Shown: positions 2,885 through 56,263 of the stretch, in pieces | How the letters are laid out: each line of letters opens with the position of its first letter | Numbering within the stretch: position 1 is the stretch's first letter | Assembly: GCA_040285855.1 (NCBI GenBank) | Contig: JAUFOQ010000013.1 | Coordinates: 124,001-188,000 of the forward strand | DNA: 64,000 bases | Source: Eukaryota sp. GEM-RC1 | Lineage: Eukaryota | Reading direction: 5' to 3' | Notes under the pieces: model-generated | What the model was told of the DNA's origin: nothing | The model's database searches: none | The model's input: only the letters and a program-made list of their open reading frames with translations | Translations under genes and position numbers: made by a program

Positions 2885-5096
2885 ATGCTCTCCATCTCTA
2901 CCTATTCCAAGGAAGCCATCCAACAGCTACAATATCTCCGATCCAACAATCTTCTCACTGACTGTGTTATTGAGTTCGAGGACTTAGAGTTCCACTGTCA
3001 CTTCTACATTGTCGTCCTCTTTTCCAAATACCTTGAGAAACTAGATCGCCATGATCACGTTGAAATCAACTCTTCGGGAATGGTTGAAGATCCCTCGATC
3101 TTTGAAGCCATTATGTTGTCCATGTACGGCGCTCCATTAAACATCAACGAAACCAATCTCTTTGACATTCTTCTCATAGCAAAACTCTTAAAGTACACTC
3201 CTTTGATCTCCCACTGCACCGACCTTCAACGACAAGGAGTACAGTCTAGCACCAACGTCTTCTCTCTCCAAGGATCAACTATTCTAGAAAAGCTGAACAG
3301 GGAAACTCCTCCTAAAGTTTTACTGAAGTATAAAGACTATATTGCTAGAACATATAGGCTTCACTTATGTTGTTTCTCTAAGTACTTTGCTAACCTTTGG
3401 ACTAGTCAATGGGCTGATTCAAATGAACAAGAACTTAGCTTTGATGATATGCTGAACGTGTCAAGAGAAAGTTTTCAAGCGTTTTTGAGTTCTTGAGTGG
3501 AAGTGAAATCAAATTGACTGCTGAAAATGCTTATGAATTGACCTATTTAGGATCCTATTTTCAAGTAAAGTCAGTAGTTACTACTGGAAATGACTTTATA
3601 GAAGTGAATTTTGATGTAGGATTTATTGAACAAGCAAGTGCTTTAAATGATCTCATGTTTGTTAAAAAACATGGACAACGTCTCAAATCAATCAAATCTA
3701 CTGATAATGGAATCAAAGTAACTCCAGAAGTCTTTGAAATTCTTTCTTCTTTTAATGTTCATTCTGTTTTTCTTGCTAAATGTTTACACAATTCTTGGAA
3801 AAATTTGAAGTATGATTGGACAATTTCACAATTCAATAGTTGTTTGAAATCCATCACGTGTACTTCAGAGACTGCAAACGTCATTTCTGAGACTTTGTCT
3901 GATTTACTTGATGACGAGGATATTGAACTTTTACTTAACAGATTCTTACTTCGATTGGTCCCTTTTCAAATCCAATCATCGACTGCCACACTCACTGCTG
4001 ACGTGGTAAAGTTGAGAACTGAACTGGTGGAAGCAAAGAAGAACTTCTCCGATAAGGTCTCGAACTTTCAACATGAAAATTCTAAGCTTTTGCAACAAGT
4101 GGAAAGTATTTGTACTCAAAGCAACCAGCTTCAGGTTAAGCAAAAGTCATATAACGTTCCAATTTTAAATTTGAAAATTGACAACCGTTCCTTAAGAAAA
4201 GAACTTGAACGTTTTAATTCTTGGAATAAGTTAAAACCTAGCGTGAGGACGATTTTGAAAAAATGTGGAATGGGTCTGTTACTCGGATTAATCTCGAGTT
4301 TAACTCTATTGGTAATGAAGGTGCCATTGCATTGGCAGAAGCTTTGAAGGTCAATTCCACTGTTACTCGGATTAATCTCGAGTTTAACTCTATTGGTAAT
4401 GAAGGTGCCATTGCATTGGCAGAAGCTTTGAAGGTCAATTCCACTGTTACTCGGATTAATCTCGAGTATAACTCTATTGGTAAAGAAGGTGCCATTGCAT
4501 TGGCTGAAGCTTTGAAGGTCAATTCCACTGTTACTAAGTTTGATCTTTGGCGTAACTCTATTGGTGATGAAGGTGCCGTTGCATTGGCTGATGCTTTGAA
4601 GGTGAATTCCACTGTTACTGAGATTAATTTGCCGGATAACTCTATTGGTGATGAAGGTGCCGTTGCATTGGCTGATGCTTTGAAGGTGAATTCCACTGTT
4701 ACTGAGATTAATTTGCCGGATAACTCTATTGGTGATGAAGGTGCCATTGCATTGGCTGATGCTTTGAAGGTGAATTCCACTGTGACTAAGATTAATCTGT
4801 GGTGTAACTCTATTCGTAATGAAGGTTCAATTGAATGCATCAGCAGAGTTTCAAATAAGCGGATTAAAATGAACAAATTTATAGACCTGAGACACGCACG
4901 GCCTTTCAAACCGAGAAAGGATTGTATTAAAGTACACGATGAAATACAGACCCCCCATGTCACAAAGACTCATGGGGAATCCATTGGAGTAACTGTCCCA
5001 GTTCCCAGAGTGGATCAAATTTACGTTATGGAATGTCCTACGCCGCCATTGAGTGAAGATCTAATGATTGACAAAAGGTCCGATGAAATGATGTAA
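2885..5096 (+). CDS. BTB/POZ x2 - coiled coil - LRR protein, copy 1 (two 1-nt frameshifts in homopolymers)
   Basis: TDCVIEFEDLEFHCH..VVLFSKY and LCCFSKYFANLW BTB motifs. ORFs 2840..3496, 3493..4347 and 4263..5096 join by adding one T at about 3482-3486 (T5 vs T6 in copy 2) and one A at about 4258-4263. Seven 28-aa RI-like LRRs follow. Confidence 0.8.
4281..4860 (+). repeat. Tandem 84-nt LRR-coding array (7 units)
   Basis: Units start at 4281, 4365, 4449, 4533, 4617, 4701 and 4785; consensus TxIxLxxNSIGxEGAxALAxALKVNSTV. Confidence 0.95.
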
Positions 5097-6229
5097 GTTG
5101 AGTCAGTTGGCGGGTGTAGGAAGATTGCAAATACTTGGTAATTGAATAGAGATGTACTGCACTGTGAAAAATGATAAAGATTGAAACACGTCCCGTGCAA
5201 CATTATTTCGTACTCGCTGTTTCTTAAGAAATTAACATTCTAGAAGAAACTAAATGTGCGATCAATATCTACAATCAAACATTTTGAGTTAGTGACTTGA
5301 AAAGTTTTATGTTATCAATTAACGGAATACAAACTACTAGTCTTAAAAGACATTAAAAAACGGGGTTTATGATCAATCAGTGAAATAAACGCATTTGCAG
5401 AAGTTAATAACTAACAGACACTAACTAAAGTATCTAAACTATGATCCTTCTGTCCATCACCGAACAACTTACCTAAAATTGAATTAAAATATCTGCATTG
5501 AACGAAACAACACAAACGTTAACATACTCAACCAAAAAATTTCATATTGTTTCACTTTATAGTCATCCAGCCTACGTCATTGACGTTCTGTAATCGAACG
5601 GTTAAAGAATTCAGCACAAAATTGTATTTCTGCAAGTTGTTTTTAAACAAGACATGGCCAAATTGTACCACACAATAGTATAATTGATCACAACTGTTCA
5701 CTGTTAAGTGTTGTTCTCATACATTTGTTTTCATCAATTAAAGGGAATTTAGGGCTGATAAATACAATTAATACTAATACAAATACACTATTCCAGAAAA
5801 AATACAATACATACTACAGAATAAATATAGAATACAAAAAATACTGTATATTGCATTTTACTACTATGCAGTACAGTACTTGAAATTTCAGTTTGTTTAG
5901 TTTAACACTTCATAAGTAAATCTTAGTAAATCTTCCATGTTTGACAGTTTCAACTGTATTGCAATATTGACCAATATATTGGTCGTTATCCAATTTTGAT
6001 TGGAAGGACAAAAACCGATACCAATATAATGCAACAAATATAACAGAGCCCTGGTTACCGATCGTACTCAAGTCCATCTAAAACAGGATCAACGTCAGAC
6101 TCTGATTCAGATACAAGAGATTCGTCTGCTTCATTTCTTTCTTCATCTTCTTTTTCTTCCCCTTTCTGCAAAACTAATTCCACAAATAAACTCTTCATCT
6201 CAATAATGAGGCTTGAAAACTTAACATAC

Positions 6230-7487: not shown

Positions 7488-9061
7488 TTAGCACCTGATC
7501 CGATAATTTGAGATTCTTTTGATGACTTGTTCAGTCTGAGAGTCAGTATGGTTAGCAACTAGATTAATCTTAGTCACAGTGGAATTCACTTTCAAAGCTT
7601 CAGCCAATGCAATGGCACCTTCATTACCAATAGAGTCACTCTCAAGAGTAACCCGACTAACTGATCCGCTCCTCATTTTTTCCAAAACCGTCATCACTCA
7701 AAACTGTCATCACTCCAAGAATTGAGACGTTCAATTTCTTTTCTTAAGGAACCGTTGTCAATTTCCAAATTTAAAATTTGCTGGTTATGAGACTTTTGAA
7801 TGGCCTGAAGCTCATTGTTCAGAGTAGAAATACTTTCCACTTGTTGCAAAAGCTTAGAATTTTCATGTTGAAAGTTCGAGACCTTATAGGAGAAGTCCTT
7901 CTTTGCTTCCACCAGTTCAGTTCTCAACTTTACCACGTCAGCAGTGAGTGTGGCAGTCGATGATTGGATTTGAAGAGGGACCAATCGAAGTAAGAATCTG
8001 TTAAGTAAAGGCTCAATATCTATGTCATCAAGTAAATCAGATAAAGTCTCAGAAATGACGTTTACAGTCTCTGAAGTACACGTGAGGGATTTCAAACAAC
8101 TATTGAACTGTGAAATTGTCCAATCAGACTTCAAATTTTTCCAAGAATTGTATAAACATTTAGCAAGAAAAACAGAATCAACATTAAAAGAAGAAAGAAT
8201 TTCAAATACTTCTGGAGTTACTTTGATTCCATTATCAGTAGATTTGATTGATTTGAGACGTTGTCCATGTTTTTTAACAAACATGAGATCATTTAAAGCA
8301 CTTGCTTGTTCAATAAATCCTACATCAAAATTCACTTCTATAAAGTCATTTCCAGTAGTAACTACTGACTTTACTTGAAAATAGGATCCTAAATAGGTCA
8401 ATTCATAAGCATTTTCAGCAGTCAATTTGATTTCACTTCCACTCAAGAACTCAAAAAACGCTTGAAAACTTTCTCTTGACACGTTCAGCATATCATCAAA
8501 GCTAAGTTCTTGTTCATTTGAATCAGCCCATTGACTAGTCCAAAGGTTAGCAAAGTACTTAGAAAAACAACATAAGTGAAGCCTATTTGTTCTAGCAATA
8601 TAGTCTTTATACTTCAGTAAAACTTCATGAGGAGTTTCCCTCTTCAACTTTTCTAGAATAGTTGATCCTTGGAGAGAGAAGACGTTGGTGCTAGACTGTA
8701 CTCCTTGTCGTTGAAGGTCGGTGCAGTGGGAGATCAAAGGAGTGTACTTTAAGAGTTTTGCTATGAGAAGAATGTCAAAGAGATTGGTTTCGTTGATGTT
8801 TAATGGAGCGCCGTACATGGACAACATAATGGCTTCAAAGATCGAGGGATCTTCAACCATTCCCGAAGAGTTGATTTCAACGTGATCATGGCGATCTAGT
8901 TTCTCAAGGTATTTGGAAAAGAGGACGACAATGGAGAAGTGACAGTGGAACTCGAAGTCCTCGAACTGAATAACACAGTCAGTGAGAAGATTGTTGGATC
9001 GGAGATATTGTAGCTGTTGGATGGCTTCTTTGGAATAGGTAGGGACCGAGAGGTTTGTCAT
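7488..9061 (-). CDS. BTB/POZ x2 - coiled coil - short LRR protein, copy 2
   Basis: Near-identical paralogue of 2888..4225 starting MTNLS at 9061. The frame breaks at a 16-nt tandem duplication (7683-7714) before about 2 LRRs (ORF 7488..7697). Confidence 0.8.
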
Positions 9062-9990: not shown

Positions 9991-10819
9991 CCATTAAGCG
10001 TGTTTTTCCTCAATTTCTCGGTCCCAAAGGTGAGAAATTATAGAGGCTTGATTGTACACTACAACTTCATGCCTCTGTATTAATACAAATACAAATACAA
10101 CGCATACAAGTACACTATTTCCATCATGGGAGTGTATTTCAATTGTATTTCAGGTGGAAACATGTGTGTTACTGTCATAACACCATTTAATATAATCAAA
10201 TATACTACGAAGTGACATTGCCAAATACTTTTTACGTTTCATTGTTTTCACACCGAAAGTAGTTGAACTTTGGTTTTACATTATGAAAACATCTATGGTT
10301 TTTGATGTGATTTCAGTTGATGTTTGTAAAAAGTGCATTTAATCAAGCCAAAAATGAAGTTTAGTCCCTGATTTTTCAGTAAAATTGAAGAGAAATCAAT
10401 ACCATGCTCCATGACTCTCCATTTCAACGAGCACCAATTCCATAGGAGGTTGTTGTTGTGCTGATATCCCGCAGTTGAGATGTAAACAGTATAGTGGGAG
10501 AGGATGCAAGTGTTTTTGAATCAGTAGAAGTCATTACATAATTGATGAATTGAAATTTGCTGGACACACACAACTTCATACTACCATTTTACATACTGTT
10601 ACAGAAGAAACATTGTATTTGGTACAGACGTAGTATTTATGTCACATTAATCTACATTGACAAAAATACTAGTAAATACATATTGATACTAAAAATACCA
10701 AACAAATATACAAATAGGGACTTTGTATTAATACAAATACAAACACAAAATACAAATATAAACTTGGTGGTCATGATAGGCGTAACTGCCCCACTAGGAA
10801 GTCTGCTTCAGATGATGCC

Positions 10820-12981
10820 ATGATTGCCGAAGTTGTTTTGTCCGTGGAGTCTAAACAGTCTGTTCTTGATTTCCAAGAGACTGTTTGTGAGCCTAAAATT
10901 AATTCATCAATTTCATTGACCTGTCTTTTTTGTGCTAAATCTGTTTCTGGGAGAAATAAATCCAATCGTCCACTTCTTGTGTGTTTTGATTGTTCACCTA
11001 CTGATGTATGTCGTTCACAATTTAGAATTCCTATCATGATATCTCCAATGGCGGCTGTTAATGTCGGGACTGCTCTTAGAAGTGTCACTCAAATTTTACG
11101 CGGTGGAATTTGGAAACCTGCACCTTTTGGCGATACATGTTATCAAATTGTTAAGAAATCCAGTAGAAAAATTAAACCTGTTCTTAAGTCTCAAGTTAGT
11201 GATAAGTTTCTTACCAAAAGATTTCAAAATCTTGTTTTACGAGGTCAGTTTTCTTCTGCTTTGTCCTCCCTTAATCACGCACTTCCAGCTGAAGTTTCTG
11301 TTGAAACTGTTGAAAAACTAAAAAAATTACACCCTTTTGAATAATTTTCAGGTAATCCGGTTGTTGGTGAGCTTTCTATGTCGTGCTGAACTAACAAACC
11401 TGTTTTAGTTGATGAAATTCTAAAATTAAAGTCGTCATCCCCTTCTGGTCGTGCTGCTGGTCCTTCTGGTATGAGTTTTGATCATTTTAAAATTGCCGTT
11501 AATGCTGTTCCTGAAATTTGTGAAGATCTTGCTGTTTTCTGTAATGAAGTTTTGCTAGGCACAAAGAAATAACCTCATGCTCTTTGCTCTTCTAGATTAG
11601 TGGCTTTAAACCAACCAAATGGTGGTGTGAGACCAATTGCAGTGGGTGAAACAATTTCTCGTATTTTTTCAACTTTGTGTTTTAGGAGAGTCAGAGATTC
11701 CTCTGTTGAATTCTTTAGACCGTTTCAATTTGCATTTGGAGTTCCTGATGGCACTACATGTGCTGCTTTAACCTCTGATTTTCTTCTTCATTCAAATGAG
11801 GAAAATGCCATTTTGAACATTGATTTTAAAAATGCATTTAATTGTGTTTTAAGGTCAACTATATCTGACGAACTTTCTGAATTTTTTCCTCAGTTGATTC
11901 CTTATTTTAATCTTTTTTTATGGTAAAGCGTCTAATTTAATTTTTTACAAGTTTGATATTAAATCAACTAGAGGCGTTAAGCAAGGTGATCCTTTGGGTC
12001 CTCTTTTGTGTTGTCTCGCTCTGCAAAAATTATTTAAAATCTTACAATTAGAATTTCCAACTGTTAAAATTAGTGCTTATGCTGATGATTCTTCGCTGAT
12101 CGCTCCAGTTGACGTTCTCAAAAAGTGTTTTTCACGTTTCATTGAACTTTCTTTGAGTATTAGTTTAACAATTAATTTTGATAAGTGTTTTCTTGTTGTT
12201 AAGTCTTCGAATGTGTCTAATCTTGGTTTTTGTAATATTCAAATCATCGATTATTCTACTCAATGTTTTCGTTTCCTTGACACATTTTTGGGAAATTATG
12301 AGAAAATTCATTCAGAATTGGAGTGTTCATTAACGACCATTGAAGAAAAACTAAATCAAATATTATCTTTAGATGTGAGTAAACATGTTTCCTTTGCTAT
12401 GCTTCAGGTCTGTTTTTCCGGGAAAATTAATCATTTTTTACGTTCATTAGACTATTTCCTTGCTGAAACATTTGCCAAAAAAATTCAATTTTATTAGAAC
12501 AAATTTTGTCTCTAACTTGGCGGAAATTGATGAGTCTATTTTTCCATTTCATGCTTTTTATTTTTCTGAATTCGCAGGAGTAGGTTTCACCCATGCAAAA
12601 ATCATTAGAAAATCTGCTCTTTTAGGAGGTGTTAAGAATTTTATGTTTGAATTTTTGAAACGGTTTCCCTTGGATGGAATCAATCTGTTGAATTCCAGTA
12701 ATTGCCGTTGGGTTCAATCTGCTAAAAATTTGGTATCATCCTTGTCTCCTGAAATGTGGGAAGATCTGTTCCCTGCTCATTTGAAGGAGACTCCTTTAAA
12801 AATATTTCTTCTCTGCCGTCTGCTGAGAAATTGTACAAGTTTGGTGTGAAGGTTAATGTTGATAAACGTAATCTTTTACCGGGTGGTGATGAAGTCGTTT
12901 GGATTTAATCTTAGTATTATTTGTTTGTTTTTACAATTTCATAGTTTTGTAGGAAGGTTACCTTATTGGGTGCCGAATAAA
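10820..12981 (+). mobile_element. CRE-like non-LTR retrotransposon (RT pseudogene, endonuclease domain deleted)
   Basis: RT motifs AAGPSG, GGVRPIAVGE, IDFKNAFN, GVKQGDPLGPLL and AYADD with stops and frameshifts. The last ~157 nt (12824-12981) are near-identical to the 3' end of the copy at 48719-48875 and end in AATAAA. Confidence 0.85.
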
Positions 12982-20063: not shown

Positions 20064-20925
20064 ATGGATGATCGTATAATACATAAGAATTGGGGTAAAT
20101 TTATAAGTGTATCCGCAGTAGGATATTTATCTAAACTCGGATACCAAAAAACCAAGATATGTTATATCGAAAAAGGTTGATGAACATACTGATGGTTTTA
20201 TGGGAGATGATCATGCAACACATCAACATAAATTATATGAGGACGTTCGGAGAGACCATCCAGACCATTCAGATTTTCCACCTGCAAATGTGAACACACT
20301 TAAGGATATTGTAAATAAAACAGGAAAGTTTATAAAAAGAGTCGTAAGTGCAAAAGCATTTGATGATCTGCCTGTAACAACTCAAATAACGCTGTTGTAT
20401 GGTTTTGTATATAAAATACTGGAATCTATGGGTAAAGCTCCACGTGGTGGTCTAACTATTGAAACTTTATTACTTACTGAAATAGTTGGTCGACATTTAG
20501 TTAGAAGTTATAATCAAGGACCTATTACTGGTACAACAAATCAAGATTATACACCATCTAATCGAATTTATACAAGGAACCCTGAAAATGAAACGATTAA
20601 TATTAGAGAAATAGATAGGGCTTCACAAAGTGAAGAGGATAATATTAACTTGTTACATCGTTTATTGAACATAGTTAATATTTGGGATGATTATAATCCA
20701 ACTGATCCAAGTTTGATTGTGTGGCAGGATTATAATCGTAGTATGGATGCGTTCTTAGGGGTATTTGATAGGTTTTCTGCTATCATAGGAAATGATCGCT
20801 TATCAAGAGAGGATGTTCCACTTTATAATCTACTTAGAGGTGAAATAAATGGCACAAATGTTAACTTAACTCCTGGGAGAATTAGGGAGGCTAAAGAGAA
20901 ATTATATAAAAAAACTAGAATGTAG
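20064..20925 (+). CDS. Hypothetical viral-like protein (about 285 aa after one frameshift at A run near 20172)
   Basis: ORF 20200..20925 extends upstream to ATG 20064 if one A is removed. No recognisable domain. Confidence 0.45.
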
Positions 20926-20956
20926 ACTCCTAGGCAGAAAAAAATATATTTTTATT

Positions 20957-21620
20957 TTATTGAGTTTTTACTCTACTCCATCCACATTTGGGATTAATAC
21001 AGGTTTCTATAATGGTCTCAGCTTCATCACCAGCTCGAGTAGTTCTGTATTTCGTCAATAATGATTCTAGTTTACATCTTGGACATTTAACATATACCAT
21101 ATCTTCTCCTGTAATAAATTGTGATTCCTTAAATCTTGCATATAATTCATTTAAATGAATTAACATGTTTGAATAATGCAAATCAATTTCTTCAATGAAA
21201 TTAGATTCGAATTCAGTGGTTTTAATACCATTTAATTCATTGTAAAATTTTTCATATCCCTTCATTTCTATTTCCATTATGTGCATTTTCTCATTATATT
21301 TTTCAATGGTCTTAAACAATCCTTGTAATAATTTGAAATATAAAATTTGATTCTTTGGTTCACAAAAATAGACAACGTGATTATTTTTTTTAGCTTCTTT
21401 TACATTGATTACATTTTTTTACATATGTTTGATCAACATCCCGCATTTCTTTTTCAATTGTATATTCTGCCATTGATACATGTTCTTCATATGTTTCATT
21501 AAAAGATAATGTTAATTCATATTCATCACGTAAGGTAATTTTTCCCAAAAACTTTAGTCGATTTTCATAATCTTTAATTTTCTTTATCAATGAATCATGA
21601 TCTTTTCTAATTTCAATCAT
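20957..21620 (-). CDS. TFIIS/RPB9/RPA12-type C-terminal zinc-ribbon protein (transcript cleavage factor-like)
   Basis: CPRC...TTRAGDEAETIIETCINPKC matches CxxC..QTRSADE..T.F..CxxC. ORFs 21390..21620 and 20957..21319 join across an A7 run at about 21414-21420. Confidence 0.75.
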
Positions 21621-21671
21621 TTTTTAATAAATAAAATCATTTTTTTATATAATAGATTTTTTATTGATAAA

Positions 21672-22017
21672 ATGTCAAAAAAACAACAATTGGCAATATA
21701 CGGAAAGTTTTATACTGATGTTAATAATATTGTCAATTCAGACTTAGATTATTCAAGTAAAGTGATTAGAATCAAGAATGAATGTTATTGGAGTTAATTA
21801 TTCACTGACTTGTATTGATAGACCATCTGTAGATTTAAAAGTAATGACTTATGAATTATTTTACAAATATATATCAAATATAATTGATGCTACTAGTAGT
21901 ATTGACGATGAGACTAAAATTAATGAATGTTTAAAAGTTATTTGTGGTATTCCATTTACAATCGAATTACTAGATCAAGTGGCAATTAGAAGAAAAAGAA
22001 CAAAGGAAATGAATTAA
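21672..22017 (+). pseudogene. Small hypothetical viral-like gene, frameshifted
   Basis: MSKKQQLAIYGKFY... followed by overlapping ORF 21778..22017. Confidence 0.4.
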
Positions 22018-22884
22018 ATATTTAATTCTTGTTGTTCAAGGTGAATGTCAAAAAGTTCAAATAAATCATTTCTGTTTGTTTGTTTAATTGTTCGAAGTAA
22101 TTTATCTAAATCTATATCATCCATTGTCCATAAATCAACTTCTTCTAAATCATAAATATCCTTATATACTGGTGGAACATAATCAGGAACTTCGGGTATT
22201 ATTATTATTTTTACCTTTATTTTTGATTTTGATACAATTTTATAAAAATGTTCTTTATCTATACCAACTTTTTCAAGTTCTTTTTCAAATCATCCCATAT
22301 ACGTTCCATATAATATGGATCATATTTATACAAAAATATAGCAATAGCTGTCAATGCATAAGATTTTGCATATTCTGGTTTTGGATTTAATTGATTATAA
22401 ATTTCATATAGTTCAGGATAAAATCCCATTAATTCAAAACCATATTCTCTACTAATATTTGATGCATAGGTCAGGATTGTTTGATTCATTTCAATATTTG
22501 GATTAGGAATATCAATATCCAATGCTCGTTGTTGAATTGTTTCATTACACCATTCACAACATAAATCACCACCAACATCATATGTTGGGAAATCTTCAAC
22601 CAAATTATGTTAACAATATATTTTATATCTTAAATGGTATTGGAAGGTCCCTCAGTTTTAATGGTTGATCCACAAAAAGAAAGCAATGCTTTTCTATCAT
22701 ATCTCCTATTTGGTATATCAATATTATTATTCATTATTGCAATTGTCATGATGGTTAGATCTAACCAAAATTCTAATCCTCCATCTACTAAGTATTGGTA
22801 AAATATTGTCGAAAAAACAAGACCTTCCGAAAAGAAAGCACACATGGGGTCGAAGAGATTGAAGATACTGAAGAAATTGTTCAT
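22014..22884 (-). pseudogene. Hypothetical viral-like gene with CCEWC motif, frameshift and stop
   Basis: ORF 22259..22603 continues to a stop at 22014 after adding one A at about 22281-22285. Upstream fragment 22630..22884. Confidence 0.4.
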
Positions 22885-23204: not shown

Positions 23205-26095
23205 CTATCTTCTCTTATAAATCAAAACATAAGCCATTCTACTACAAACTCTGTCAGGACTCAGTGGAGTAGCTTTTGAATCGTCCATCTCATACCAACC
23301 TTTAGCTTCAGGATTGTACACGTATGCAGTGGAGTGACCCCCATCCATGTTTCCCTCGTGATTGGTAACTGCAATCAAATCATAAATTAATTGATTGGAC
23401 CCTTTCTGTTGAGGGTCAAGAACATATTTACTGATATCAAGTCCTTTCAAAGGAAACTCTACCAAATCTTCAATCTTACTATTATCCTTAAATCTTTTCA
23501 AATGAACAATTAAGTACTCAGAAGCACGATAGATGTCGAACTTCTTTTCAGCTTTCTTGTGTTCTTTACATTTAGGACAGAACCATTCATTCGTTTCATC
23601 AAGAGTTTCGGGTTGACAGAACAAATCCAAACACTCGGAAAGTTGTGAATTAGAATGAAGGCCAGTTTCAGATTTAAGAACTTCCGTTGAAAACTGAATC
23701 TCAATGTATTCAGAAACTGCCTTCTTGGTCTTCCATTGATACTTAACATTGATTGGAGAACTGTTTGAAGAGTAATAGTATTGAGGCCGTTTTGACTTGA
23801 GATAAGCATCGGATAATTCTTCAATTGGTGTTAAATGGAAAGCAGTGTGACCAACAGCCACTTTGATTTCACAATGATTTTCCCAACCATTAACCAAAAA
23901 TGTTTGATTGTAGACATTAATCGCACATTTGATCTCTTCAGCAGTGTTATTTTCTTCAGAGACAGCAAGTAAGAAGTTATGAGTGGTTTCAAACTGAGGA
24001 AAAGCATACTGAAAAATAGAAGGTTTTGGACCCTGATGAGAAACAATCACCAATCTTTTTTGATTGAAATCGATAATGGGAGCTAAAACTGTTCCCTGAA
24101 GTTCATAACAAATCAAAACATCAAAATGCGACTCCCATTGAATGTTGATGTGATCTTCATCAGATTTAGGGGAAAAATTTCCCAGCATTGTTGCTCTTGA
24201 CAGAAAAATAGAGCTCGTAGAGAGATTGAAATGTTTAGAAATTTTCATCTTCATTGAAGTAACATCAGGAATTACAGGACAAGGTAGTTTAAACTCAATT
24301 GTTCGGACGAATTTTTCATAAACATTTAAAAGTTGTAATGAGAATTCAATATTATGGATATTTCCAGCAGGAATTGGAACAGAAATTTGATTGGTTGTAG
24401 TAAAAGTGACACTAGTCTTTTTACAAGTAGGACACTTCAATTTTGACCTATACAAACTCGTAAAGAGCTCACCCACACGTGATTGATTATGTGCATTGAA
24501 TCTCTGAATAGATTCCTCAGCAATTCTAAACTCTTCTTGATCTGAATCAATAACAATATCAAAATTTGGCATTTGTCTAACTCTATTCAAGTCTTTCTGG
24601 AGATTGTCTAACAAAAATGAAAGGAACTCTTGGGAATCATGTTGTTTCAATAACTGACTAGCCATCATTTCCACTTCATGTTTAAGTTTGGTAGGAGTGT
24701 AAACAGAAGCCTTGCCATTCCAAAGATTCTGAACAGTTTCTCTCCATGCTAGAGCTATCTTTCCTTTACTTCCATTTGAATTGTTCTTGTTCAGATCTCT
24801 CTTGAATTCGTCTGAAAGAACAAACTCAGTGAGATCAACACAATGACTGATTGATTGAATGATTGAGTTCATAAAGCACGTGTTTTCGATGTTGGACAAC
24901 CCAGTGATACCCCGGGGGTTCACACCCACTTCTTTCTTAAGTTCCACCAGTTCAGCCCTCAAATTTGCCACGTCAGCATTGAGTGTGGCAGTCGATGATT
25001 GGATTTGAAGAGGGACCATTCGGACTAAGAATCTGTTAAGTAAAGGTTCAATATCCACGTCATCAAGTAAATCAGATAAAGTCTCAGAAATCACGTTTAC
25101 AGTCTCTAAAGTACACGTGATGGATTTCAAACAACTATCGAACTGTGACCTTGTCCAATCAGATTTTAAATTTTGCCAGGAATTACACAAACATTTAGCA
25201 AGAAAAACAGAATCAACATTAAAAGAAGAAAGAATTTCAAAGACTTCTGGAGTCACTTTGATACCATTATCAGTAGATTTGATTGATCTGAGACGTTGTC
25301 CATGTTTTTTAACAAACATGAGATCATTTAAAGCACTTGCTTGTTCAATAAATCCTACATCAAAGTTAACTTCTATAAAGTCATTTCCAGTAGTAACTAC
25401 TGAATTTACTTGAAAATAGGATCCTAAATAGGTCAATTCATAAGCATTTTCAGAAGTCAATTTGATTATACTTCCACTCAAGAACTCAAAAACCTTTGAA
25501 AACTTTCTCTTGACACCTTCAGCATATCATCAAAGCTAAGTTCTTGTTCATTTGAATCAGCCCATTGACTAGTCCAAAGGTTAGCAAAGTACTTAGAATA
25601 ACAACATAAGTGAAGCCTATTTGTTCTAGCAATATAGTCTTTATACTTCAGTAAAACTTCAGGAGGAGTTTCCCTGTTCAGCTTTTCTAGAATAGTTGAT
25701 CCTTGGAGAGAGAAGACTTTGTTACTAGACTGAAGTCCTTGTCGCTGAAGGTTGGTGCAGTGGGAGATCAAAGGAGTGTACTTTAAGAGTTTTGCGATCA
25801 CATGAATGTCAAAGAGATTGGTTTCGTTGATGTTTAAAGGAGCGCCGTACATGGACAACATAATGGCTTCAAAGATTGAGGGATCTTCAACCATTCCAAA
25901 AGAGCTGATTTCTACGTGATCATGGCGATCTAGTTTCTCAAGGTATTTGGAAAAGAGAACGACAATGGAGAAGTGACAGTGGAACTCGAAGTCCTCGAAC
26001 TGAATAACACAGTCAGTGAGAAGATTGTTGGATCGGAGATATTGTAGCTGTTGGATGGCTTCTTTGACAAAGGTAGAGATGGAGAGGTTTGTCAT
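23205..26095 (-). CDS. BTB/POZ x2 fused to a USP (UCH family, USP4/11/15-like) deubiquitinase, copy 3
   Basis: N-terminus paralogous to copies 1 and 2 (same T5 frameshift near 25490). USP Cys box GLSNIENTCFMNS, QHDSQEFL, two CxxC Zn pairs, YLIVHLKRF, His box HEGNMDGGHSTAY and WYEMDDS. Confidence 0.88.
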
Positions 26096-26544
26096 TTGAA
26101 GAGATTTTATACAATTTAAACTTCAATTCATAACCAACATATGAAGTTAGAACTTCTCTAGTTGATGCATAGTTGGTAATCACAAACTATTGGGGTCTGT
26201 CAAGAAATGAGTTTATGTGTAAATACAACCAAACAACACATAACTAAGTTACAGAAAACTACCTTCAAAATGATTGTGACTTGTTTAATGACTCATGGTT
26301 AATGGGTATTTCTAAGTCTGACGTAATGATATCGAAACGTTTTGAATCGAGAGATGTCAGTCGCTTTTGATTGTTGATTTAACACCAGAAGTAGTGATGC
26401 GGTGTCGTTTACTTCAAAGACTAGACTTGAACACTATGACTGGCAAATATTGTCACTATTAACGTTCTATTTGTTGTAAGGATTTGAGATTTGTGTACGT
26501 TATGATATTTTATCCAGAATAATTATTGAAGAAACAGATTTATA

Positions 26545-26581: not shown

Positions 26582-26893
26582 CTAAACACCAAAACCGTAC
26601 AAGACACGTCCATGACGTTTCAAAGCATAAACAACATCCATAGCAGTGACAGTCTTCCTTCTAGCATGCTCACAATAAGTAACTGAATCACGGATGACGT
26701 TTTCCAAGAAAGTACGGAGAACGGTACGAGTTTCATCATAGATAAGAGCAGAGATACGTTTAACACCACCACGGCGAGCTAGACGACGGATAGCGGGCTT
26801 TGTGATACCCTGAATGTTTTCACGAAGAACTTTGCGATGACGTTTAGCTCCACCTTTACCAAGACCTTTACCACCTTTACCACGACCAGCCAT
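26582..26893 (-). CDS. H4: Histone H4
   Basis: [24 protein letters not shown]... near-canonical H4. Confidence 0.99.
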
Positions 26894-26970
26894 TAGAACA
26901 GATAATATGGAGAAGATTCAACATTTTGGAAGTTGAACTGAGATTGTCAAATTGTTGTGCATGAAAGAAT

Positions 26971-26980
26971 TTCTCGTGTT
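26971..26980 (-). promoter_or_regulatory. Histone upstream box (AA)CACGAGAA of H4
   Basis: About 80 nt upstream of the ATG. The same core occurs upstream of H3, H2B and H2A. Confidence 0.55.
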
Positions 26981-27197
26981 GAAGTCTTTGTTCATTGCTC
27001 AACACTTCTAAGCGATTTGTTACATACCATGAAACAGTTTATGATCTGGTGTGACACGAACTACAAGTGAAACATTTAGGAGTTTATCGGACAGTGTTGA
27101 AATAAACCAGTTCGAGTATTAACCACAATGGACAATTCAGTCAATGTTATGTAACAAAACAGAAAGAAACTAACAGGTTTTTTTATAGAATAGAAAC

Positions 27198-27213
27198 AGT
27201 GTTGATAAACACC
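27198..27213 (-). terminator. Histone 3' stem-loop (H3)
   Basis: GGTGTT-TATC-AACACT, 13 nt after the stop codon. Confidence 0.85.
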
Positions 27214-27226
27214 ATCGATTAAATAC

Positions 27227-27634
27227 TTAGAAATCCGAACGAATTCTCTTGGCTAAAGCCATATCCTTGGGCATAATGGTAACCCTTTTAGCATGAATGG
27301 CACACAAGTTAGTGTCTTCAAAAAGACCAACTAGATAAGCTTCAGCAGCTTCTTGAAGAGCTGAAATACCAGTGGCTTGGAAACGGAGTTCTCCCTTGAA
27401 TTCCTGAGCGATTTCACGAACTAAACGTTGGAAAGGCAGTTTACGGATAAGCAATTCAGTAGATTTTTGGTACTTTCTGATTTCACGAAGAGCAACTGTT
27501 CCAGGACGATAACGATGGGGTTTCTTGATTCCACCAGTAGCAGGAGCTGCTTTACGGGCAGCTTTATGAGCCAAATGCTTTCTGGGGGTCTTGGCAGAAG
27601 TGGTTTTACGAGAAGTTTGCTTAGTACGAGCCAT
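27227..27634 (-). CDS. H3: Histone H3
   Basis: MARTKQ...[39 protein letters not shown]. Confidence 0.99.
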
Positions 27635-27690
27635 GATAAGATGAAGTCATGGCAATTGTAAGGTTTTCGAACATTTCAAGGTACTCAGGA

Positions 27691-27730
27691 ATTCTCGTGC
27701 AGAGAATTTTGTAGTGCTTATTGTCGTGTT
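27691..27730 (-). promoter_or_regulatory. Histone upstream boxes of H3 (CACGAGAAT and AACACGACAA)
   Basis: ATTCTCGTG at 27691-27699 and TTGTCGTGTT at 27721-27730 on the + strand. Confidence 0.55.
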
Positions 27731-27935
27731 GGATTCATCTTCATTGAAGTGTGGTGTTTTCCCATGGTATAGGTTGTTTCAGTGGTAGTTGCCCAGCAGA
27801 CTTATATTGTAACAGTAATGATGCTCAGAATCTTTACCGATCGATGTGAGTTATTTTGATGATATTGAATCACATGTTGTGATGTGTTAAACAGAAAACA
27901 TGAGGAATACAAAGTAGAAGAAATTAGTTTATAAA

Positions 27936-27951
27936 AGTGTTGATAAACACC
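27936..27951 (-). terminator. Histone 3' stem-loop (H2B)
   Basis: GGTGTT-TATC-AACACT, 15 nt after the stop codon. Confidence 0.85.
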
Positions 27952-27966
27952 GATAATTGAAAGAAC

Positions 27967-28395
27967 CTATTCAGCTTCTCCAGAAGAACTAAACTTGGTA
28001 ACAGCCTTGGTTCCTTCAGAAACAGCATGCTTGGAAAGTTCACCAGGTAGAAGAAGTCTAACAGCAGTTTGAATCTCGCGAGAGGACAGAGTGTTTCTCT
28101 TGTTAATACGGGCAAGACGAGAAGCTTCAGTAGCAATACGTTCGAAGATGTCATTGACAAAAGAGTTCATGATACCCATGGCTTTGGTTGAAATACCAGT
28201 ATCGGGATGAACTTGACGCAAAACACGGTAGATATAGGTAGCCCAGGTCTCCTTACGGGCCTTCTTACGCTTAACTACAACAGGGGCACCACCTTCGGCA
28301 ACGGCTTTAGCGGGAGCCTTTGAAGGAGCTTTGGCTGGTACACCTTTGATAGACTTGGTGGATTTGGTAGACTTTACAGATTTCTTTCCGGGCAT
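27967..28395 (-). CDS. H2B: Histone H2B
   Basis: MPGKKS...[35 protein letters not shown]...[29 protein letters not shown]. The true ATG is at 28395. Confidence 0.98.
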
Positions 28396-28465
28396 TGTGA
28401 GTTGAATATTGAGTTTGAGGATTTCTTGGAAGAAGAACAGTTTGAATTCCAATGGGTCGCCACAC

Positions 28466-28500
28466 CACGAGAATCTCGGCCTCACCTGGATTGTCGTGTT
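28466..28500. promoter_or_regulatory. Divergent H2B/H2A promoter boxes
   Basis: CACGAGAAT (+, 28466) and AACACGACAA (-, 28491-28500) within the 146-nt intergenic gap. Confidence 0.55.
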
Positions 28501-28541
28501 CTTTTCTTATGAGAATTCATTTCCACCATAATTCTCTCTCA

Positions 28542-28922
28542 ATGTCTGAAGAAACTGGTGCTCGTACTCTCTCCTACAAAGCTGGACTTCAATTCCCCGT
28601 TGGTCGTATCCGTAGATATCTACGTGAAGGCAAGTATTCCGAACGTGTTGGTGCTGGAGCTCCTGTTTACATGGCTGCTGTCCTTGAGTATCTAACTGCT
28701 GAAGTTTTGGAATTGTCTGGTAACGCTGCAAGAGACAACAAGAAGTCTCGTATTGTTCCTCGTCATATTCTCTTGGCTATCCGTAATGATGAAGAACTTA
28801 GCAAGCTCTTGTCTCATATTATGATTCCTTCAGGTGGTGTTTTGCCTCATATTCACTCTGATTTGTTACCTAAAGGTTCCAGATCTCGCGATACCGCTGA
28901 GTCTGGCTCTCAAGAGATTTAA
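28542..28922 (+). CDS. H2A: Histone H2A with C-terminal SQEI (H2A.X-type) motif
   Basis: [11 protein letters not shown]...[41 protein letters not shown]. Likely ATG at 28542. Confidence 0.98.
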
Positions 28923-36395: not shown

Positions 36396-38970
36396 TTACA
36401 TGAGTAAAATATACACATACAAGACAAAAATAAGAACAACGAACCAAGGACGTCGAAAAAAGCTTAACAAATAAATAAATCTGGATTTCAACTTTGATAT
36501 TTCTAATCCTCTAATTATCACGTGATTATTGACTTTCAAAGCCTTTGATAACGCCTTAACACCTTTATCATCAATAGAGTTTGAACCAAGGAAAATTGAT
36601 ACAACTCCAGTACTAACTTTCAGCGAATCAGCCAATGCACAAGCACCTTCAGCTCCAATAGAGTTTCCATACAAATCCATACTGGTCAATGTTTTATTCA
36701 ATTTCAGTGCATCTGCAAATGCACTAGCACCTTCAGCTCCAATAGAGTTTCCATATAGGTCGAGGCTAGTCAGTGTGGTATTGACTTTTAAAACTGCTGC
36801 CAATGCTAGAGCACCGTCAGCTCTTATGTAATTTGCACCGAGAAAAAGACATGACACTGTAGCATTGAGTTTTAAAGCTTCTCCTAAGACTCCTGCTGCC
36901 TCACATCCAATAGAGTTTGTACCGAGAAAAAGAGTTTTGACTGAACTATTCACCTTTAATGCTTCTGCCAGTGCCTTAGTTCCTTCAGCTCCAATAGAGT
37001 TACACCTTAGGTTAATACGTGTAACTGTGGTATTCACCTTTAATGCTTCTGCAAGTGCCTTAGTTCCTTCAGCTCCAATAGAGTTACACCTTAGGTTAAT
37101 ACGTGTAACTGTGGTATTCACCTTTAATGCTTCTGCAAGTGCCTTAGTTCCTTCAGCTCCAATAGAGTTACACCTTAGGTTAATACGTGTAACTGTGGTA
37201 TTCACCTTTAATGCTTCTGCCAGTGCCTTAGTTCCTTCAGCTCCAATAGAGTTACACCTTAGGTTAATACGTGTAACTGTGGTATTCACCTTTAATGCTT
37301 CTGCAAGTGCCTTAGTTCCTTCAGCTCCAATAGAGTTACACCTTAGGTAAATACGTGTAATTGTGGTATTCACCTTTAATGCTTCTGCCAGTGCCTTAGT
37401 TCCTTCAACTCAAATAGAAATGTTCCACAAATTTAGACTTGTAACTGAAGAATTAACTTTTAACGTATCAGCTAATTCTCTAACTTTTTCAATACCAATA
37501 GAGTTGTTTGCCAGGACAATAATTGTAGTATTGTTACCTTTAAGCCCTTCCAGTACTTCCTTTAAGGTATTACTTACTTCAGAACTACTACAGTTCAAGG
37601 AATTCTGATTCCTTGTTGCTTTCATAAAAGCACTCTGATACTGGTACACATAATTGAGAACCTTCAATGGATTTTCCACTAGCTGAAGCTACTCTAGGGA
37701 CACTTTCTCCTAATTTAATAGGGTTTTTGGTCTCGTTAAGACTGTGGATTTCATTCTGCAAATTACTAATTGTCTGATTCAACAAAAGTATCTGATGTTC
37801 AAATTGAGTTCGCATACTTAGAAAATCATTACAATGTTGTTTCGAAACATGAATATTGTTTGCCTCTAACTGAGAAATTTTACTATTCAACTGCTTTTTT
37901 CCAGCGCGTAGAAGATGAATTTGATCAACTTGAGATTGGTTTTTCTCTTGCAAAAAGTCAATTTTTTCCAGTAATAGTGAATTATCAATCTGTTGAAGTA
38001 CAGGCTCATAAACAGTTAAATTTTCCAAAACATCAATTAATTCAAAAATTCTAGGTCGTTGGACTGGATCTACTCTTAAACACCTATTAATTACATCAAC
38101 CAGGACTGTTGGTATACATTCATCAAACTGAAGTGATATTCCTCTTTGTTTAGCTCCAACAAGACCATACATGGACATCCCTTCAAATGCTTCCTTGTTT
38201 TCGAACAACTCATACAACACTATCCCAAGTGAGTATATATCACTGTGTGGAGTGAAAGTGTTCTCGAATTGCTCTGGAGCAGCATAGCGGACAGTCATTG
38301 CTCCAGTTCTAGGAACTGTTGAAGTTGAGGCAATGTTCCGAGATGTTCCAAAATCAGCTATTCTTATTCTTCCATCCACAACTACCACGTTTCCAGGCTT
38401 GAGATCGCCATGAACAACCGACTTACTGTGGAGATAGCTGATTCCTTGACAGAGTTGTTTGGCATACTCGACAGTGAGAGCAGAGAAAGAGTTGGGGGAG
38501 GGGGAGGGAAGAAGAAGCTCTTTCCATAACGATTCCAATGCTATCCTCCCAATAGCAGCGACCATAGACACGAAGTACAGCAGGATGATTCAGTTGGACA
38601 AGGAGGTTCATCTCTTTCTGTAGTTTGATTCTTCCCTTTTCAGAAAGGGATACCATTTTACAGCTACTGGAAGTTTAAACCATTCACATGCATAAACAAC
38701 AGCACATCCTCCTTCAGCGATCTTATCGAGGACTTCAATTTGTTCTGATGCGATTTTTACACACAACGCTCCTTCATGAGCTGCTTGTACTAAATCTCTG
38801 AGTGCATAGTTTGGATTCTTTTCTATGGGACAATCTTGGCGACAGATTGGACACCGTTTTAAGAACGACGCGCATTGAGCACAGACAGTATGTCCTAGAT
38901 CACAGAGGAGAAGTGGGAGATGTTGGGAGAGATCAAAGGAGTCACAGCAGACAAAACATTGAATTGACAA
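36396..38970 (-). pseudogene. RING finger - TKL-like protein kinase - coiled coil - LRR - C-terminal TM protein (disrupted)
   Basis: RING CFVC...LCDLGHTVCAQC...CPICR; kinase IAEGGCAVVY, VAVK, HGDLKPGN, DFG and APE; RI-like LRRs; hydrophobic tail. Three frameshifts, a GGA>TGA stop at 37410-37412, and no ATG. Confidence 0.8.
36945..37410 (-). repeat. Tandem 84-nt LRR-coding array (about 5.5 almost identical units)
   Basis: CACCTTTAATGCTTCTGC recurs at 36951, 37035, 37119, 37203, 37287 and 37371. Confidence 0.95.
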
Positions 38971-40946
38971 AGGTTCTTATTGAGAAATCTAATGTTATGA
39001 GAAACAACATAACAACATTCTAGTTTGTCTGGGAAAAAGGTTTCCACGTTTTCAAAACGCATTTTTATGTGTTCAATTCTCATATCTGGCCAATCCAATT
39101 TCTCTCTTCCAAAATTTCTGACATGTCAACACAGTCTAGTAAGTCGTGACGACAATGATGAAGGTGAAGTCGTTTCGATTGTAGACAAGGACGACTATTC
39201 GTCACTTTTCTCTCCCAGTGGCCGAAAAACCGACTCTAAAGTCGCTTGATTACATTGTGACAACGTTCTCTTTAAGATGGATGTCTCCTTGTATTAGATG
39301 GATAGACTGAACCTTTTGGTTGTTCACTTATGATCTTTAACATTGTTACACCTGATGGGGCAGTGTTATACGGATGTATTACCACTTTTGCAAATTTTAA
39401 AGATGACCATGCTATTTTTTTTAGAAATTAATAATGTTATTGAGTCAAATAAACCAACATACACCACCAATGGTGAAACAGAGATGATCAAAGTCGGTAA
39501 ACAAATTTAAAAGAAATTTCTAGGATTTATCAGTAGTCATATAAGTTGAAGGCACGGAGAAGTTTAGAATGATTTAGTCCAAGAACAAGATGAAATTGCC
39601 AATATACTTTTTGGTGGTTTGAAATTGAGTTTTAGGGAATTATCTCACTCAAGCAGTATCAATCTGTAGTATTTGCATAGTTTCTGTTGTACAAATACAA
39701 TTTAAAACCAGACCCGAAATTTACGTTTCCAAAACGTAATTAACGTTTCCATGCCGTTTCCATACTGATATGTTTATTGGAAACGTTTCTCGTAACACTA
39801 CTAAAAATACCAAAATTTTTACAAAGATTTTTACCCTTTCAACGACACTGATTTCCATTTCCACATCAGATCAAATATTCACATAACCTTACATGTACTG
39901 ATGCGTCCGCTCTTACGTTTGTATTCCACAAACTTCCACACTTGTTTTGAAATCCGCTCATGTTAATTGTTATCTTAACAGTTAAATTTGCTAATTTTCC
40001 AGTGGTCAGATACATGTGTAGATATTAAAACGATAGACAAGGGACATGTGTCAACAAATCGGAAGACTTCTTAACGAGATCTATTTTTGCTTGCTAGTTA
40101 ACAACCTTTGATGGTACACTTATAAATGAAAGCTTAAGAACCACTGTAATACCAAAGGAGATAGACTCCGTTTTAATGAGGACAAACTCGCTGCTAAGCC
40201 GTTTTAAGTCGATGTTTTAAGTAGTGATGAAAGAAAAATGGGGACACATGTCTAGGTGGATTTTGTAACGTGTCAGAAACAATGTTGAGTTTATTGTTCA
40301 ATCAAAGCCAGTACTAAATTACTTCAATGCAAAAAGCAATCCAATCATGTAAAAGTGATTCTGTTCCGAACATCGACTGAGAGGGGAATCATATGGTTAA
40401 GTAGGGTTTTAAGTTGATCCTATCAGTATGAAAGTTCTTCTAACTGTAAAAGCTCATTCAATCGAATGTATGTATGTTGCGTTTTTCCCGTTTAAAACAA
40501 AAAAAAGTATTCTTTTGGATGTCAAAAATGAAACTCTCATATCGGAATAAGTCTCACTGAAACTATTTGTAGTGAGACTAATTGAAACAATGGGTGTAGT
40601 TTATTGTGGTATAACATGTAGAAAAACATTCCAGTCAAACATTATAGAAGACAATACAAGGGTACCTACCAGGTTTTCTAGGCTTGATGCAAAGGCACCG
40701 TGTGCACACGTGTGTGAAAACCGACACGTGGGAAATTTCGAACACAAATTTCAATAGCAGTTGCAAAAATTGGACAATATAGTAATCATATATAACGTAA
40801 TTTTATAAGACTTATCACTGTACATTACACAAACTAGTTGTGGTTATAAATAAACGATATTAATGCCAACTATGTTTATAAAGTTCCAGAAATGCTGATA
40901 ATAAACGATACAAATTCATTCGAAGAATTGCAAACATTTGTTATTA

Positions 40947-41822: not shown

Positions 41823-42257
41823 TTGTTTTTATAACAAATAGTTGTAAATTATGACTGCCAAATCATCCAGATAGTCCAGCGAATCCGTATATTACACACT
41901 TTGCACCAATGCCATTATCGTTTCCTAAAGCACAAATTGATATTAATTGTAAGGTCTATTACTAACATATGGTGTTATTATTAATGATACTGGTAAATTC
42001 CACTTTAATAGGACAAAATCAGAACGATTAATTGTACAGTCTACCCTGACATTATGTCCAATTGTCATTAAGAATTAATTCTCATTAATGTGAAATTTCA
42101 GCTACCCGACTTTTTCTCAGATCAAAATACGCCTGATGTGTTGGTATTGCCAAAAGTAGTAGATGAATAAACTAGAAAAACTTTCTTTCGATGTTGTTTA
42201 GTTCAAAAACGTAAATTGTGAAGTGAAGTGTCAGTGTCAAACAGCTTTTTAATACCA

Positions 42258-48263: not shown

Positions 48264-48409
48264 TACAAAAGATTAAATTTTTTCAATTTCATAATAATAT
48301 TTTAAGATCTAAAATCTATAGGACTTTTGCGTTCTTTTTAAGTGGATATAGTTCATCTATATAAAATACAACTTTTTAAATCTATTTTTTAACACAAGAT
48401 AATTTTGAA

Positions 48410-49277
48410 TCAAAATTTTTGATAATCTAATAATTCACTATATTCTTTTATTATTGTATTATTATATATTAAAAATAAACGAGAATGAGAATAAAATATA
48501 TTATCATCTTTTCTCAAATGTATAAATGATATTTCTCTATTCAAAAAATTAGAAAATAGATGCTTTACATTAGAATCATAAAAACCTTTTTTATTATTTA
48601 TTAATATAATAGAATTATCTCTTTCATTTATATTTAACATTTCTAATATTTCATTAAAAATATTTTCATTCACATTATAATATTCTTTCATGTAAGGATT
48701 GTATAATTGAGAGAGAAATTTATTCGACACCCAATAAGGTAACCTTCCTACAAACTATGAAATTGTAAAAACAAACAAATAATACTAAGATTAAATCCAA
48801 ACGACTTCATCACCACCCGGTAAAAAATTACGTTTATCAACATTAACCTTCACACCAAACTTGTACAATTTCTCAATTAATCTAGAGAAAAAGAAAGGAA
48901 TATTCCGATCTATGGAAAACACTATACGGATTTTCCATTCAGCCATTCTAAACTTACGCTTCTTTTCTTTACCCAATTCTTCGAAATCCTTGAAAAATTG
49001 ATCACCAGCAGGACTAATAGATCCAAAAAGAGAAACAGCAAAAGGTTGAAACACAAATTTGGAATATGAGTTTCTATTTAATTCTTCTACTTGAGAGTCA
49101 TACTTAGCTTTTCAGCTGCTGTTAATGGATTAAAAGAAGAATCTAATATCCTACTAACACAAGATTTGTTACATACATCTACTGTAGTAAAATCCATTAA
49201 TGATTGCCTCGATTTAAGCCACGGAGTATGCAAATCCAAAGTTAGTTAATGATATTTTCATCTAATTGTAATAACAT
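48410..49277 (-). pseudogene. Very AT-rich viral-like gene split by a CRE insertion
   Basis: MLLQLDENIIN (49277-49245) upstream of the insertion and FLSQLYNPYMKEYY... (48718-48410) downstream. Confidence 0.4.
48719..49237 (-). mobile_element. 5'-truncated CRE-like retrotransposon (RLE endonuclease end plus 3' UTR)
   Basis: DLHTPW..MDFTTVD..AEK..KYD..FQPFAVSLFG. The 3' end is near-identical to 12824-12981. Confidence 0.85.
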
Positions 49278-55965: not shown

Positions 55966-56263
55966 AAGTAGAAAGATAGATGGAGGTATTTGTAAAAAAA
56001 ATCATTTTAATTCTTTTAATCATTTTTCTTCTTTGGTTTGGTGAAAAATATTGGGGTTGTTGGTTGGATTATTGAGGGAGTAGGGTTCCGTCGATATCAA
56101 TTCCTAAAGTTCTGATTCCTTTTTTACTCAAGGCTATCAATAGATGCGCCTTCCCACAAAACGGGTCTAATAAAAATTGTACTTCATTCTTCACTAAGAA
56201 CCCGACAATATCTTGAATGAATCCTTGATGGTTAAAAAAATATAAAGTAATGAACGAAGATTT

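Follow-up and report, generated by a model that had tools for sequence, protein, structure and literature searches.

Lamprey VLRs are assembled somatically from an incomplete germline gene and donor cassettes, while diversity-generating retroelements introduce adenine-specific changes with the help of a template repeat and a dedicated reverse transcriptase. The variable concave LRR face of the lamprey VLRs is mentioned in passages of a study of Ectocarpus (PMC3341825), which give the concave face as the usual ligand-binding side and report that the ROCO and LRR-kinase genes of this alga, proposed to encode receptors, have selected sites on that face and high rates of gene birth and death; each Ectocarpus LRR is a 72-nt exon and spare copies occur in introns. 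The repeats of fungal NLR proteins (WD40 in the HNWD family of Podospora, ANK and TPR elsewhere) are near-identical, vary in number and differ at a few positively selected surface codons (PMC1805685, PMC4986451), high internal conservation being defined in the latter by an identity between repeats of more than 85% over 100 residues or more. The F-box and MATH-BTB families of nematodes and plants, which are expansions of ubiquitin-ligase adaptors, combine an adaptor-type domain with a variable substrate-binding domain, for which foreign-protein targets have been proposed (PMC4063957). Tetrahymena LRR genes with 90-bp exons form young, clonally expanded arrays for which unequal crossing-over is proposed (PMC6564038), and newly formed repeats have been described as universally prone to accelerated divergence, driven by relaxed together with positive selection (PMC5120217).

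Innate recognition is almost unstudied in free-living anaerobic protists. The organisms named similarly to Eukaryota sp. GEM-RC1 in a preprint (10.1101/2023.05.03.539051) are Skoliomonas, free-living anaerobic metamonads, and we infer that the GEM-RC1 label denotes Skoliomonas. The terms 'leucine', 'LRR' and 'BTB' do not occur in the main text of that preprint, the supplements of which might mention them, and a literature search with a coverage outside which most subscription journals lie found no description of a BTB-BTB-coil-LRR family. Such a family is examined here in a stretch of 64,000 nucleotides of the GEM-RC1 assembly (hereafter the window). A tandem array found there is probably the C-terminal ribonuclease-inhibitor-type LRR domain of a young, expanded BTB-BTB-coil family, in which repeats multiply by local duplication and likely diversifying selection would make the binding surface differ from gene to gene, likely for foreign or fast-changing proteins. 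Being small and intron-free, with a fixed scaffold and four variable codons per repeat, the family offers a testable case.

The LRR array and the gene that carries it

The N-terminal chassis of the gene, referred to as A1, extends over 2885..4277 on the forward strand and consists of two BTB stretches (PF00651, E=3e-18), a helical region, a coiled coil and an N-cap. The array closes this BTB-BTB-coil gene, which starts at 2885, and the coupling of LRRs to BTB domains proposed in the preliminary description is supported. Tandem Repeats Finder places the array at 4276-4833, with a period of 84 nt, 6.6 copies and 91% matches; when translated in register, the sequence from 4278 onwards yields six full units of 28 residues (4278..4781, 84 nt each), followed by a seventh strand (4788-4805) and a C-cap in the form of a capping helix, together at 4782..4872. 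The units are contiguous at an exact spacing of 84 nt and in one reading frame, with no introns in between, and belong to the ribonuclease-inhibitor-like LRRs (PF13516, E=6e-38), beta-alpha units with the pattern LxxLxLxxN. Their variable 18-nt strands lie at 4284-4301, 4368-4385, 4452-4469, 4536-4553, 4620-4637 and 4704-4721 on the forward strand. Seven 84-nt units had been counted earlier, of which six are complete and the last is represented by its strand and capping helix; the seven strands themselves (TRINLEF, TRINLEF, TRINLEY, TKFDLWR, TEINLPD, TEINLPD, TKINLWC) read identically on re-translation.

An alignment of the six complete units has 16 variable columns out of 84, and 10 of these fall within a single 18-nt segment, codons 3-8 (scan p=0.0025, 100,000 permutations). 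The variation is thus concentrated, as had been suggested, on the strand and the loop that follows it, but the framework described as frozen is not fully so, as the other six variable columns lie outside codons 3-8, although at a lower density. Only five of the seven A1 strands are distinct because the first and second, and the fifth and sixth, are identical through recent duplications of units 1-2 and 5-6, the latter in shifted register. For this reason the variation was recounted on the distinct haplotypes of A1 and its inverted paralogue A2, namely seven distinct strands out of nine and five distinct frameworks out of seven. With the duplicates removed, the minimum number of changes is 23 in the 18-nt strand and 9 in the 66-nt framework, a roughly nine-fold difference in density, and the mean pairwise distances are 0.38 and 0.067, respectively; the nominal p=1e-9 for this comparison ignores relatedness and the unequal haplotype number. 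The 23 strand changes introduce no stops and keep the hydrophobic pattern. A contrast between units 4 and 5 (nine strand differences, no framework differences) was discounted, as it partly reflects a shifted-register duplication.

The paralogue A2 (7488..9061, reverse strand; 94.5% nucleotide identity over 1493 bp) has a BTB-BTB-coil region that is intact, a single break of the frame ahead of the LRR, and a full unit at 7661-7578 with a capping strand. The strands SRVTLES and TKINLVA ascribed to it are present, but the 'about two units' amount to this one full unit and the capping strand. In A1 itself the frame is interrupted twice, in a run of five T (3482-3486) and in a run of six A (4258-4263), and its open reading frame extends to 5096 because the TGA at 4870-4872, where the paralogues end, is out of frame after a run of four A. 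The T-run break, located between the two BTB domains, recurs in A1, in a third chassis copy, A4 (near 25490), and in the database paralogues P0003 and P0250, which terminate at the site, with differing flanking codons; A2, P0001, P0002 and P0249 read through it. It represents a systematic error, a slippage hotspot or a regulated frameshift.

Frame breaks occur in all four family genes of the window (A1 to A4), while four long open reading frames elsewhere in it hold frame across 25 runs of at least five A or T. Homopolymer breaks restricted to multi-copy genes are a pattern of uncorrected sequencing indels, and the observed breaks fit either such indels or a slippage hotspot; A1 may be either an intact gene with assembly indels or a recent pseudogene, and intact paralogues (P0001, P0249) exist in the database. 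The recurrence of one-nucleotide breaks points to a multi-copy family that is imperfectly resolved or unstable, and could suggest that the array is itself a product of assembly or polishing, by which paralogous repeat reads were collapsed, the framework flattened and units duplicated. Such an origin is improbable, as the strand differences are in frame and stop-free, the same design is found in the intact paralogues and the same pattern appears in independent assemblies of other organisms.

A predicted model of the A1 array (pLDDT 94.8) has beta strands at codons 3-5 and places codons 7-8 in the next loop; strand and loop codons face the concave, usually ligand-binding, side of an LRR. In the model of P0001 (pLDDT 89.4) the LRR superimposes on that of NOD2 with Z 26.9 and an rmsd of 1.6 A over 213 aligned residues; since axonemal and cytoskeletal LRR proteins match the P0001 fold equally well, the fold gives no indication of function. 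The BTB pair of P0001 aligns with the tethered Miz1-BCL6 POZ pair 4u2m (Z 20.9, rmsd 3.4 A, 221 residues aligned). The BTB/POZ domain characteristic of Cullin-3 adaptors is present, as two BTB stretches. The PDB sequence matches of the region are almost all of the ZBTB type, with one Kelch-like, and ZBTB-type POZ domains mainly dimerise. Because the best solved matches are ZBTB-type, it is a possibility rather than a finding that the pair binds Cullin-3. The model has a helical region after the second BTB, where Cullin-3 adaptors have their 3-box/BACK helices; the fold search barely covered it, and P0001 has no Pfam match to BACK. No Pfam match to NACHT or NB-ARC was found in the open reading frames of the window, in P0001 or in 26 paralogues.

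Candidate explanations for the strand codons: selection, relaxation and rewriting

By the counting method, pN/pS is 0.379/0.032 at the five exposed codons, 0.373/0.231 at codons 3-8 and 0.044/0.072 in the framework; between A1 and A2, the BTB-coil region has a pN of 0.033 and a pS of 0.048 over 440 codons. A two-class codon model of our own was fitted to eight units (unit 2, identical to unit 1, being dropped) on a tree shared by strand and framework, and gave an omega of 6.5 at codons 3, 5, 7 and 8 and of 0.44 at the remaining ones (p=2e-5 for omega>1), so that the excess of amino-acid change claimed for the exposed codons is supported under a shared-history model. The strand codons alone gave an omega of 1.8, not significantly above 1 (p=0.31). 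Support for diversifying selection on the strands therefore depends on a common history of strand and framework, failing which it is not proven, and part of the signal may be homogenisation of the framework, given this strand-only value and the higher pS of codons 3-8 (0.23 against 0.07).

The strand-only estimate, the synonymous change that is raised in the strand too, the broken state of A1 to A4 and the universal fast divergence ascribed to new repeats (PMC5120217) could all be accommodated without any special selection, if the exposed LRR positions were relaxed, the framework constrained and recently homogenised, and the genes perhaps decaying duplicates. However, at codons 3, 5, 7 and 8 the third positions carry one minimum change and positions 1-2 carry 16 (p=0.01 if changes were evenly spread). 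CGG and CCG, which make up only 0.05 and 0.02 of their codon boxes in five open reading frames of the window, also persist in spite of their rarity. Both observations argue for strands that are young and not saturated; moreover, P0001 and P0249 are intact. We regard relaxation as unlikely, though it keeps some weight.

The favoured reading, local duplication with likely diversifying selection, would operate through known processes. Unequal crossing-over and gene conversion would keep the LRR framework young, ordinary point mutation and positive selection would diversify codons 3, 5, 7 and 8, and coil-LRR modules would recombine whole between loci, the proteins likely serving as intracellular sensors or adaptors that feed the ubiquitin system. 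Further observations stand against it: only seven distinct strands are available at the DNA level, a related array in the window (A3, below) expanded recently with no diversification of its strands, and it does not predict that the Leu at codon 6 should be encoded by five synonymous codons.

This structural Leu lies beside the two most variable codons, and its five different codons across A1 and A2 show that the changes, earlier characterised as non-synonymous, are not all so. It has three third-position changes, as many as the 12 four-fold sites of the framework have together (p=0.008, without correction and with the site chosen after the fact), an excess absent from the arrays L030 and L035 used as controls, in which the Leu is fixed. 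The simplest guess is hitchhiking on multi-nucleotide changes at codon 7. The same excess, together with the multi-nucleotide differences in the strands, the bimodal strand differences among near-identical frameworks in the protein controls and, at columns 3 and 7, a strong memory of the third-base class, might otherwise be attributed to a dedicated mechanism that rewrites the 18-nt strand in the manner of VLRs or retroelements, by short-patch conversion templated on donor fragments or by local error-prone synthesis. We consider such a mechanism to have a low probability. In simulations, point mutation with selection is compatible with the third-position deficit (p 0.05-0.29), and the deficit recurs in L035; the class memory is seen in a control group too; and en-bloc replacement of strands, for which the bimodality was considered, was rejected as weakly supported once both flanks were required.

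Exchange of strands between loci, a central claim of the preliminary description, did not emerge from the family. The comparison was made with paralogous proteins in place of genome-wide DNA, on a partial family sample of 123 distinct strands from 28 loci, omitting the near-duplicates P0249 and P0137 and also P0004, which carries the A1 array itself. Between non-sister loci identical 6-mers recur once against 0.96 expected under a shuffled null, and 5-mers recur between loci eight times against 7.4 expected; no A1 or A2 strand was found at the other loci of this sample. Nor were identical cassettes seen in different orders; sister genes keep their strand order. The likeness drawn to the cassette architecture of VLRs and brown algae is not supported either, there being no introns between units and no donor fragments in the 64-kb window, within which no template or donor match longer than 13 nt was found and a search for template-like patterns matched only the array units themselves. 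Adenine-directed mutagenesis was rejected as a candidate, as the synonymous framework adenines of GAA14 and GCA18 are invariant in all five distinct frameworks and no template was found in the window; two strand changes fall at non-A sites of the best-fit template. The nearby reverse transcriptase is broken, matches RVT_1 only, lies far below the group II cut-off and has no match to a diversity-generating-element family. In its most far-reaching form, targeted short-patch rewriting of the 18-nt LRR segment, with binders mounted on swappable BTB, kinase-RING and deubiquitinase chassis, would give a free-living single-celled eukaryote a repertoire of ubiquitin-linked immunity that anticipates giant viruses or the microbes it ingests, a speculation to which we attach little credence.

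Probable module exchange, genomic neighbourhood and arrays in other organisms

A search with the BTB chassis gave nine matches, eight of them named, seven from Eukaryota sp. GEM-RC1 and one from TZLM1-RC, and a short-protein LRR search gave at least 24 GEM-RC1 matches among the 120 matches listed, none of which carries the two sister labels. These 24 are spread over contigs of 9 different lengths, which speaks for an expanded family. The BTB-BTB chassis has 113 relatives at E<=0.001, and all 10 of those checked for organism carry the three related labels. Since no LRR match at E<=1e-5 was found in the 75 of the 113 that were scanned, a set without the close LRR-bearing paralogues and most short matches, the fusion of BTB-BTB with LRR looks lineage-restricted. 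Partner domains among the chassis relatives include Sel1, ALK glycine-rich, kinase plus ubiquitin, MIF4G, MATH and TLDc, the ubiquitin-related partners in the family being USP, RING, ubiquitin-like and MATH. In one relative, P0257, the BTB pair is preceded by FG-nucleoporin repeats and followed by Sel1 repeats, an arrangement that may reflect a gene-model fusion.

The proposal that repeats are gained and lost is supported, as copy number differs between sister loci through local duplication: 8 and 9 strands, 7 and 6, and 7 and 2 were counted. P0001 (8 strands) and P0249 (9 strands) conserve the strand order. Over their first 446 positions they have 32 differences, none of them beyond position 330, and they are identical through the coil. 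A kinase protein (P0136) and a BTB protein (P0006) have the coil, caps and LRR in common (142/216 identical); the coil-LRR is thus also found behind a kinase, and in other genes the BTB pair is joined to a deubiquitinase, to Sel1 or to further domains. Judged from these sequences, the whole C-terminal module appears to move between genes, and the chassis to have had it swapped among LRR, deubiquitinase and other domains.

A clear instance is A4 (23205..26110, reverse strand), the chassis of which has 94% nucleotide identity to the LRR-bearing copies and is fused to a USP/UCH deubiquitinase (PF00443, E=7e-55) in place of LRRs; this BTB-USP fusion is a very recent domain swap that joins an adaptor-type domain to a ubiquitin eraser. 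A 94-bp remnant of a USP deubiquitinase (5201..5294, forward strand), 80% identical to 23888-23981, begins 330 bp beyond the A1 cap in the same orientation as A1. A3 (36396..38976, reverse strand) is a RING-kinase-coil gene with 12 C-terminal LRR units (37529-36522) of the A1 type, five of which, units 3-7, are near-identical with strands that are not diversified; it has one premature TGA and further breaks.

Several other features were noted in the window. Directly upstream of A4, four genes resembling core histones (H4, H3, H2B and H2A by inspection) form a compact cluster at 26582-28922. The broken reverse-transcriptase element at 10718-12849 (forward strand) has RVT_1 in two frames, at a distance of roughly 1.7-2.5 kb from where A2 starts. 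A segment of 158 bp at 48719-48875 recurs in inverted orientation, with 98% identity, at 12824-12981, and an intact-looking Tc5/DDE_1 transposase open reading frame of 509 codons is located at 46772-48301 (reverse strand). A direct duplication of 2.26 kb, 90% identical and with degraded kinase-like similarity, occupies 42254-44517 and 52421-54684, and a further kinase remnant lies at 52020-52366. The low-GC stretches 20122-22609 and 54938-63128 have open reading frames with no clear family and are putatively virus-like; they include a strong RNB match and weak matches to a C962R-type primase (E=0.002) and a TFIIS ribbon (E=2e-4). The virus-like open reading frames, identified from weak family matches, are about 15 kb and 50 kb from the A1 array. 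Searches for relatives of the open reading frame at 58227-59246 confirmed none, and an atlas search gave no usable match for that at 20122-20922.

Strand-focused variation is not unique to GEM-RC1. Mean differences at five exposed sites were calculated for within-protein repeat pairs with frameworks at most one residue apart, in control groups hand-picked from sequence-search matches. The GEM-RC1 family has 2.27 such differences (63 pairs, 11 of 29 proteins), Mortierellaceae 2.19 (121 pairs, 15/25 proteins), Acropora 1.77 (40 pairs, 4/4) and a NACHT-LRR protein group 2.15 (534 pairs, 36/39), while no pairs of this kind were present in 20 vertebrate NLRC3 proteins and one in 26 JGI proteins. 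At the DNA level, a search of metagenome contigs with the A1 array gave five loci, of which only L030 is an array, and viral contigs gave none with a single-protein query and eight (L035-L042) with an alignment query. Strand and framework distances are 0.31 and 0.079 in L030 (10 of 11 exons, the capping exon being dropped), 0.33 and 0.17 in L035, and 0.23 and 0.15 in L038, the last two from the viral collection; among the four DNA-level arrays the contrast is sharpest in A1/A2 and of the same kind in all. The exact framework pattern had no match in the metagenome contigs; a looser one had 29 single matches in viral contigs, none with two or more LRR motifs, and these were set aside as chance.

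L030 (592-2095) is eukaryotic but unrelated; each of its exons encodes a single LRR of 84 nt, the spacing is 142 nt and codons 7-8 are hypervariable. The loci L035-L042, four of them GVMAG-labelled, have the 28-residue LRR type of A1, with up to 62-63% identity and variable codons 7-8, and one contig of 18.8 kb carries three such genes. Host-virus exchange or a parallel arms race is possible for these LRRs, and the occurrence of the same repeat type on giant-virus-labelled contigs raises the question of exchange between host and virus.

Comparison with known systems

Diversification of the arms-race type has been described before in sensor genes of fungi and algae and is widespread, and the process seen here is of a known kind. 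Lamprey VLRs share the variable concave LRR face with the GEM-RC1 array, but the latter gives no signal of an incomplete germline gene or of donor cassettes and its LRR class is cytosolic-type. Tetrahymena likewise has young, clonally expanded protist LRR arrays, but differs in having one exon per repeat and in LRR class. The Ectocarpus genes differ in unit, those of GEM-RC1 being of 84 nt and contiguous in one frame, and in the ROC-COR domain, which the GEM-RC1 genes lack.

The fungal high-internal-conservation repeats are closer in behaviour. The GEM-RC1 array has a comparable internal conservation, with 91% DNA matches over 6.6 units, and shares with the HNWD type the change in repeat number, here between sister loci; it differs from them in having LRR instead of WD, ANK or TPR repeats, BTB or kinase N-termini and no NACHT or NB-ARC, and sharing of single repeats between loci, as in HNWD, was not detected in the sample of 28 loci. 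The NLRC3/NOD2-type LRR_6 expansions of Mortierellaceae, Acropora, other eukaryotes and giant-virus-labelled contigs are built, as in GEM-RC1, from a 28-residue unit in which columns 7-8 vary most, and their repeats with identical frameworks differ at about two exposed sites; the BTB-BTB chassis sets the GEM-RC1 genes apart, its fusion with LRR appearing to be lineage-restricted. The logic of an adaptor joined to a variable domain is that of the nematode and plant F-box and MATH-BTB families, with a tandem BTB and a C-terminal LRR in GEM-RC1 and a putative role for Cullin. The BTB-LRR proteins of GEM-RC1 are thus an undescribed, NOD-less variant in an unstudied lineage, with a function that we infer; if they are indeed ubiquitin-linked sensors, the F-box/BTB arms-race hypothesis would extend from nematodes and plants to metamonads that deploy such sensors with no NOD domain.
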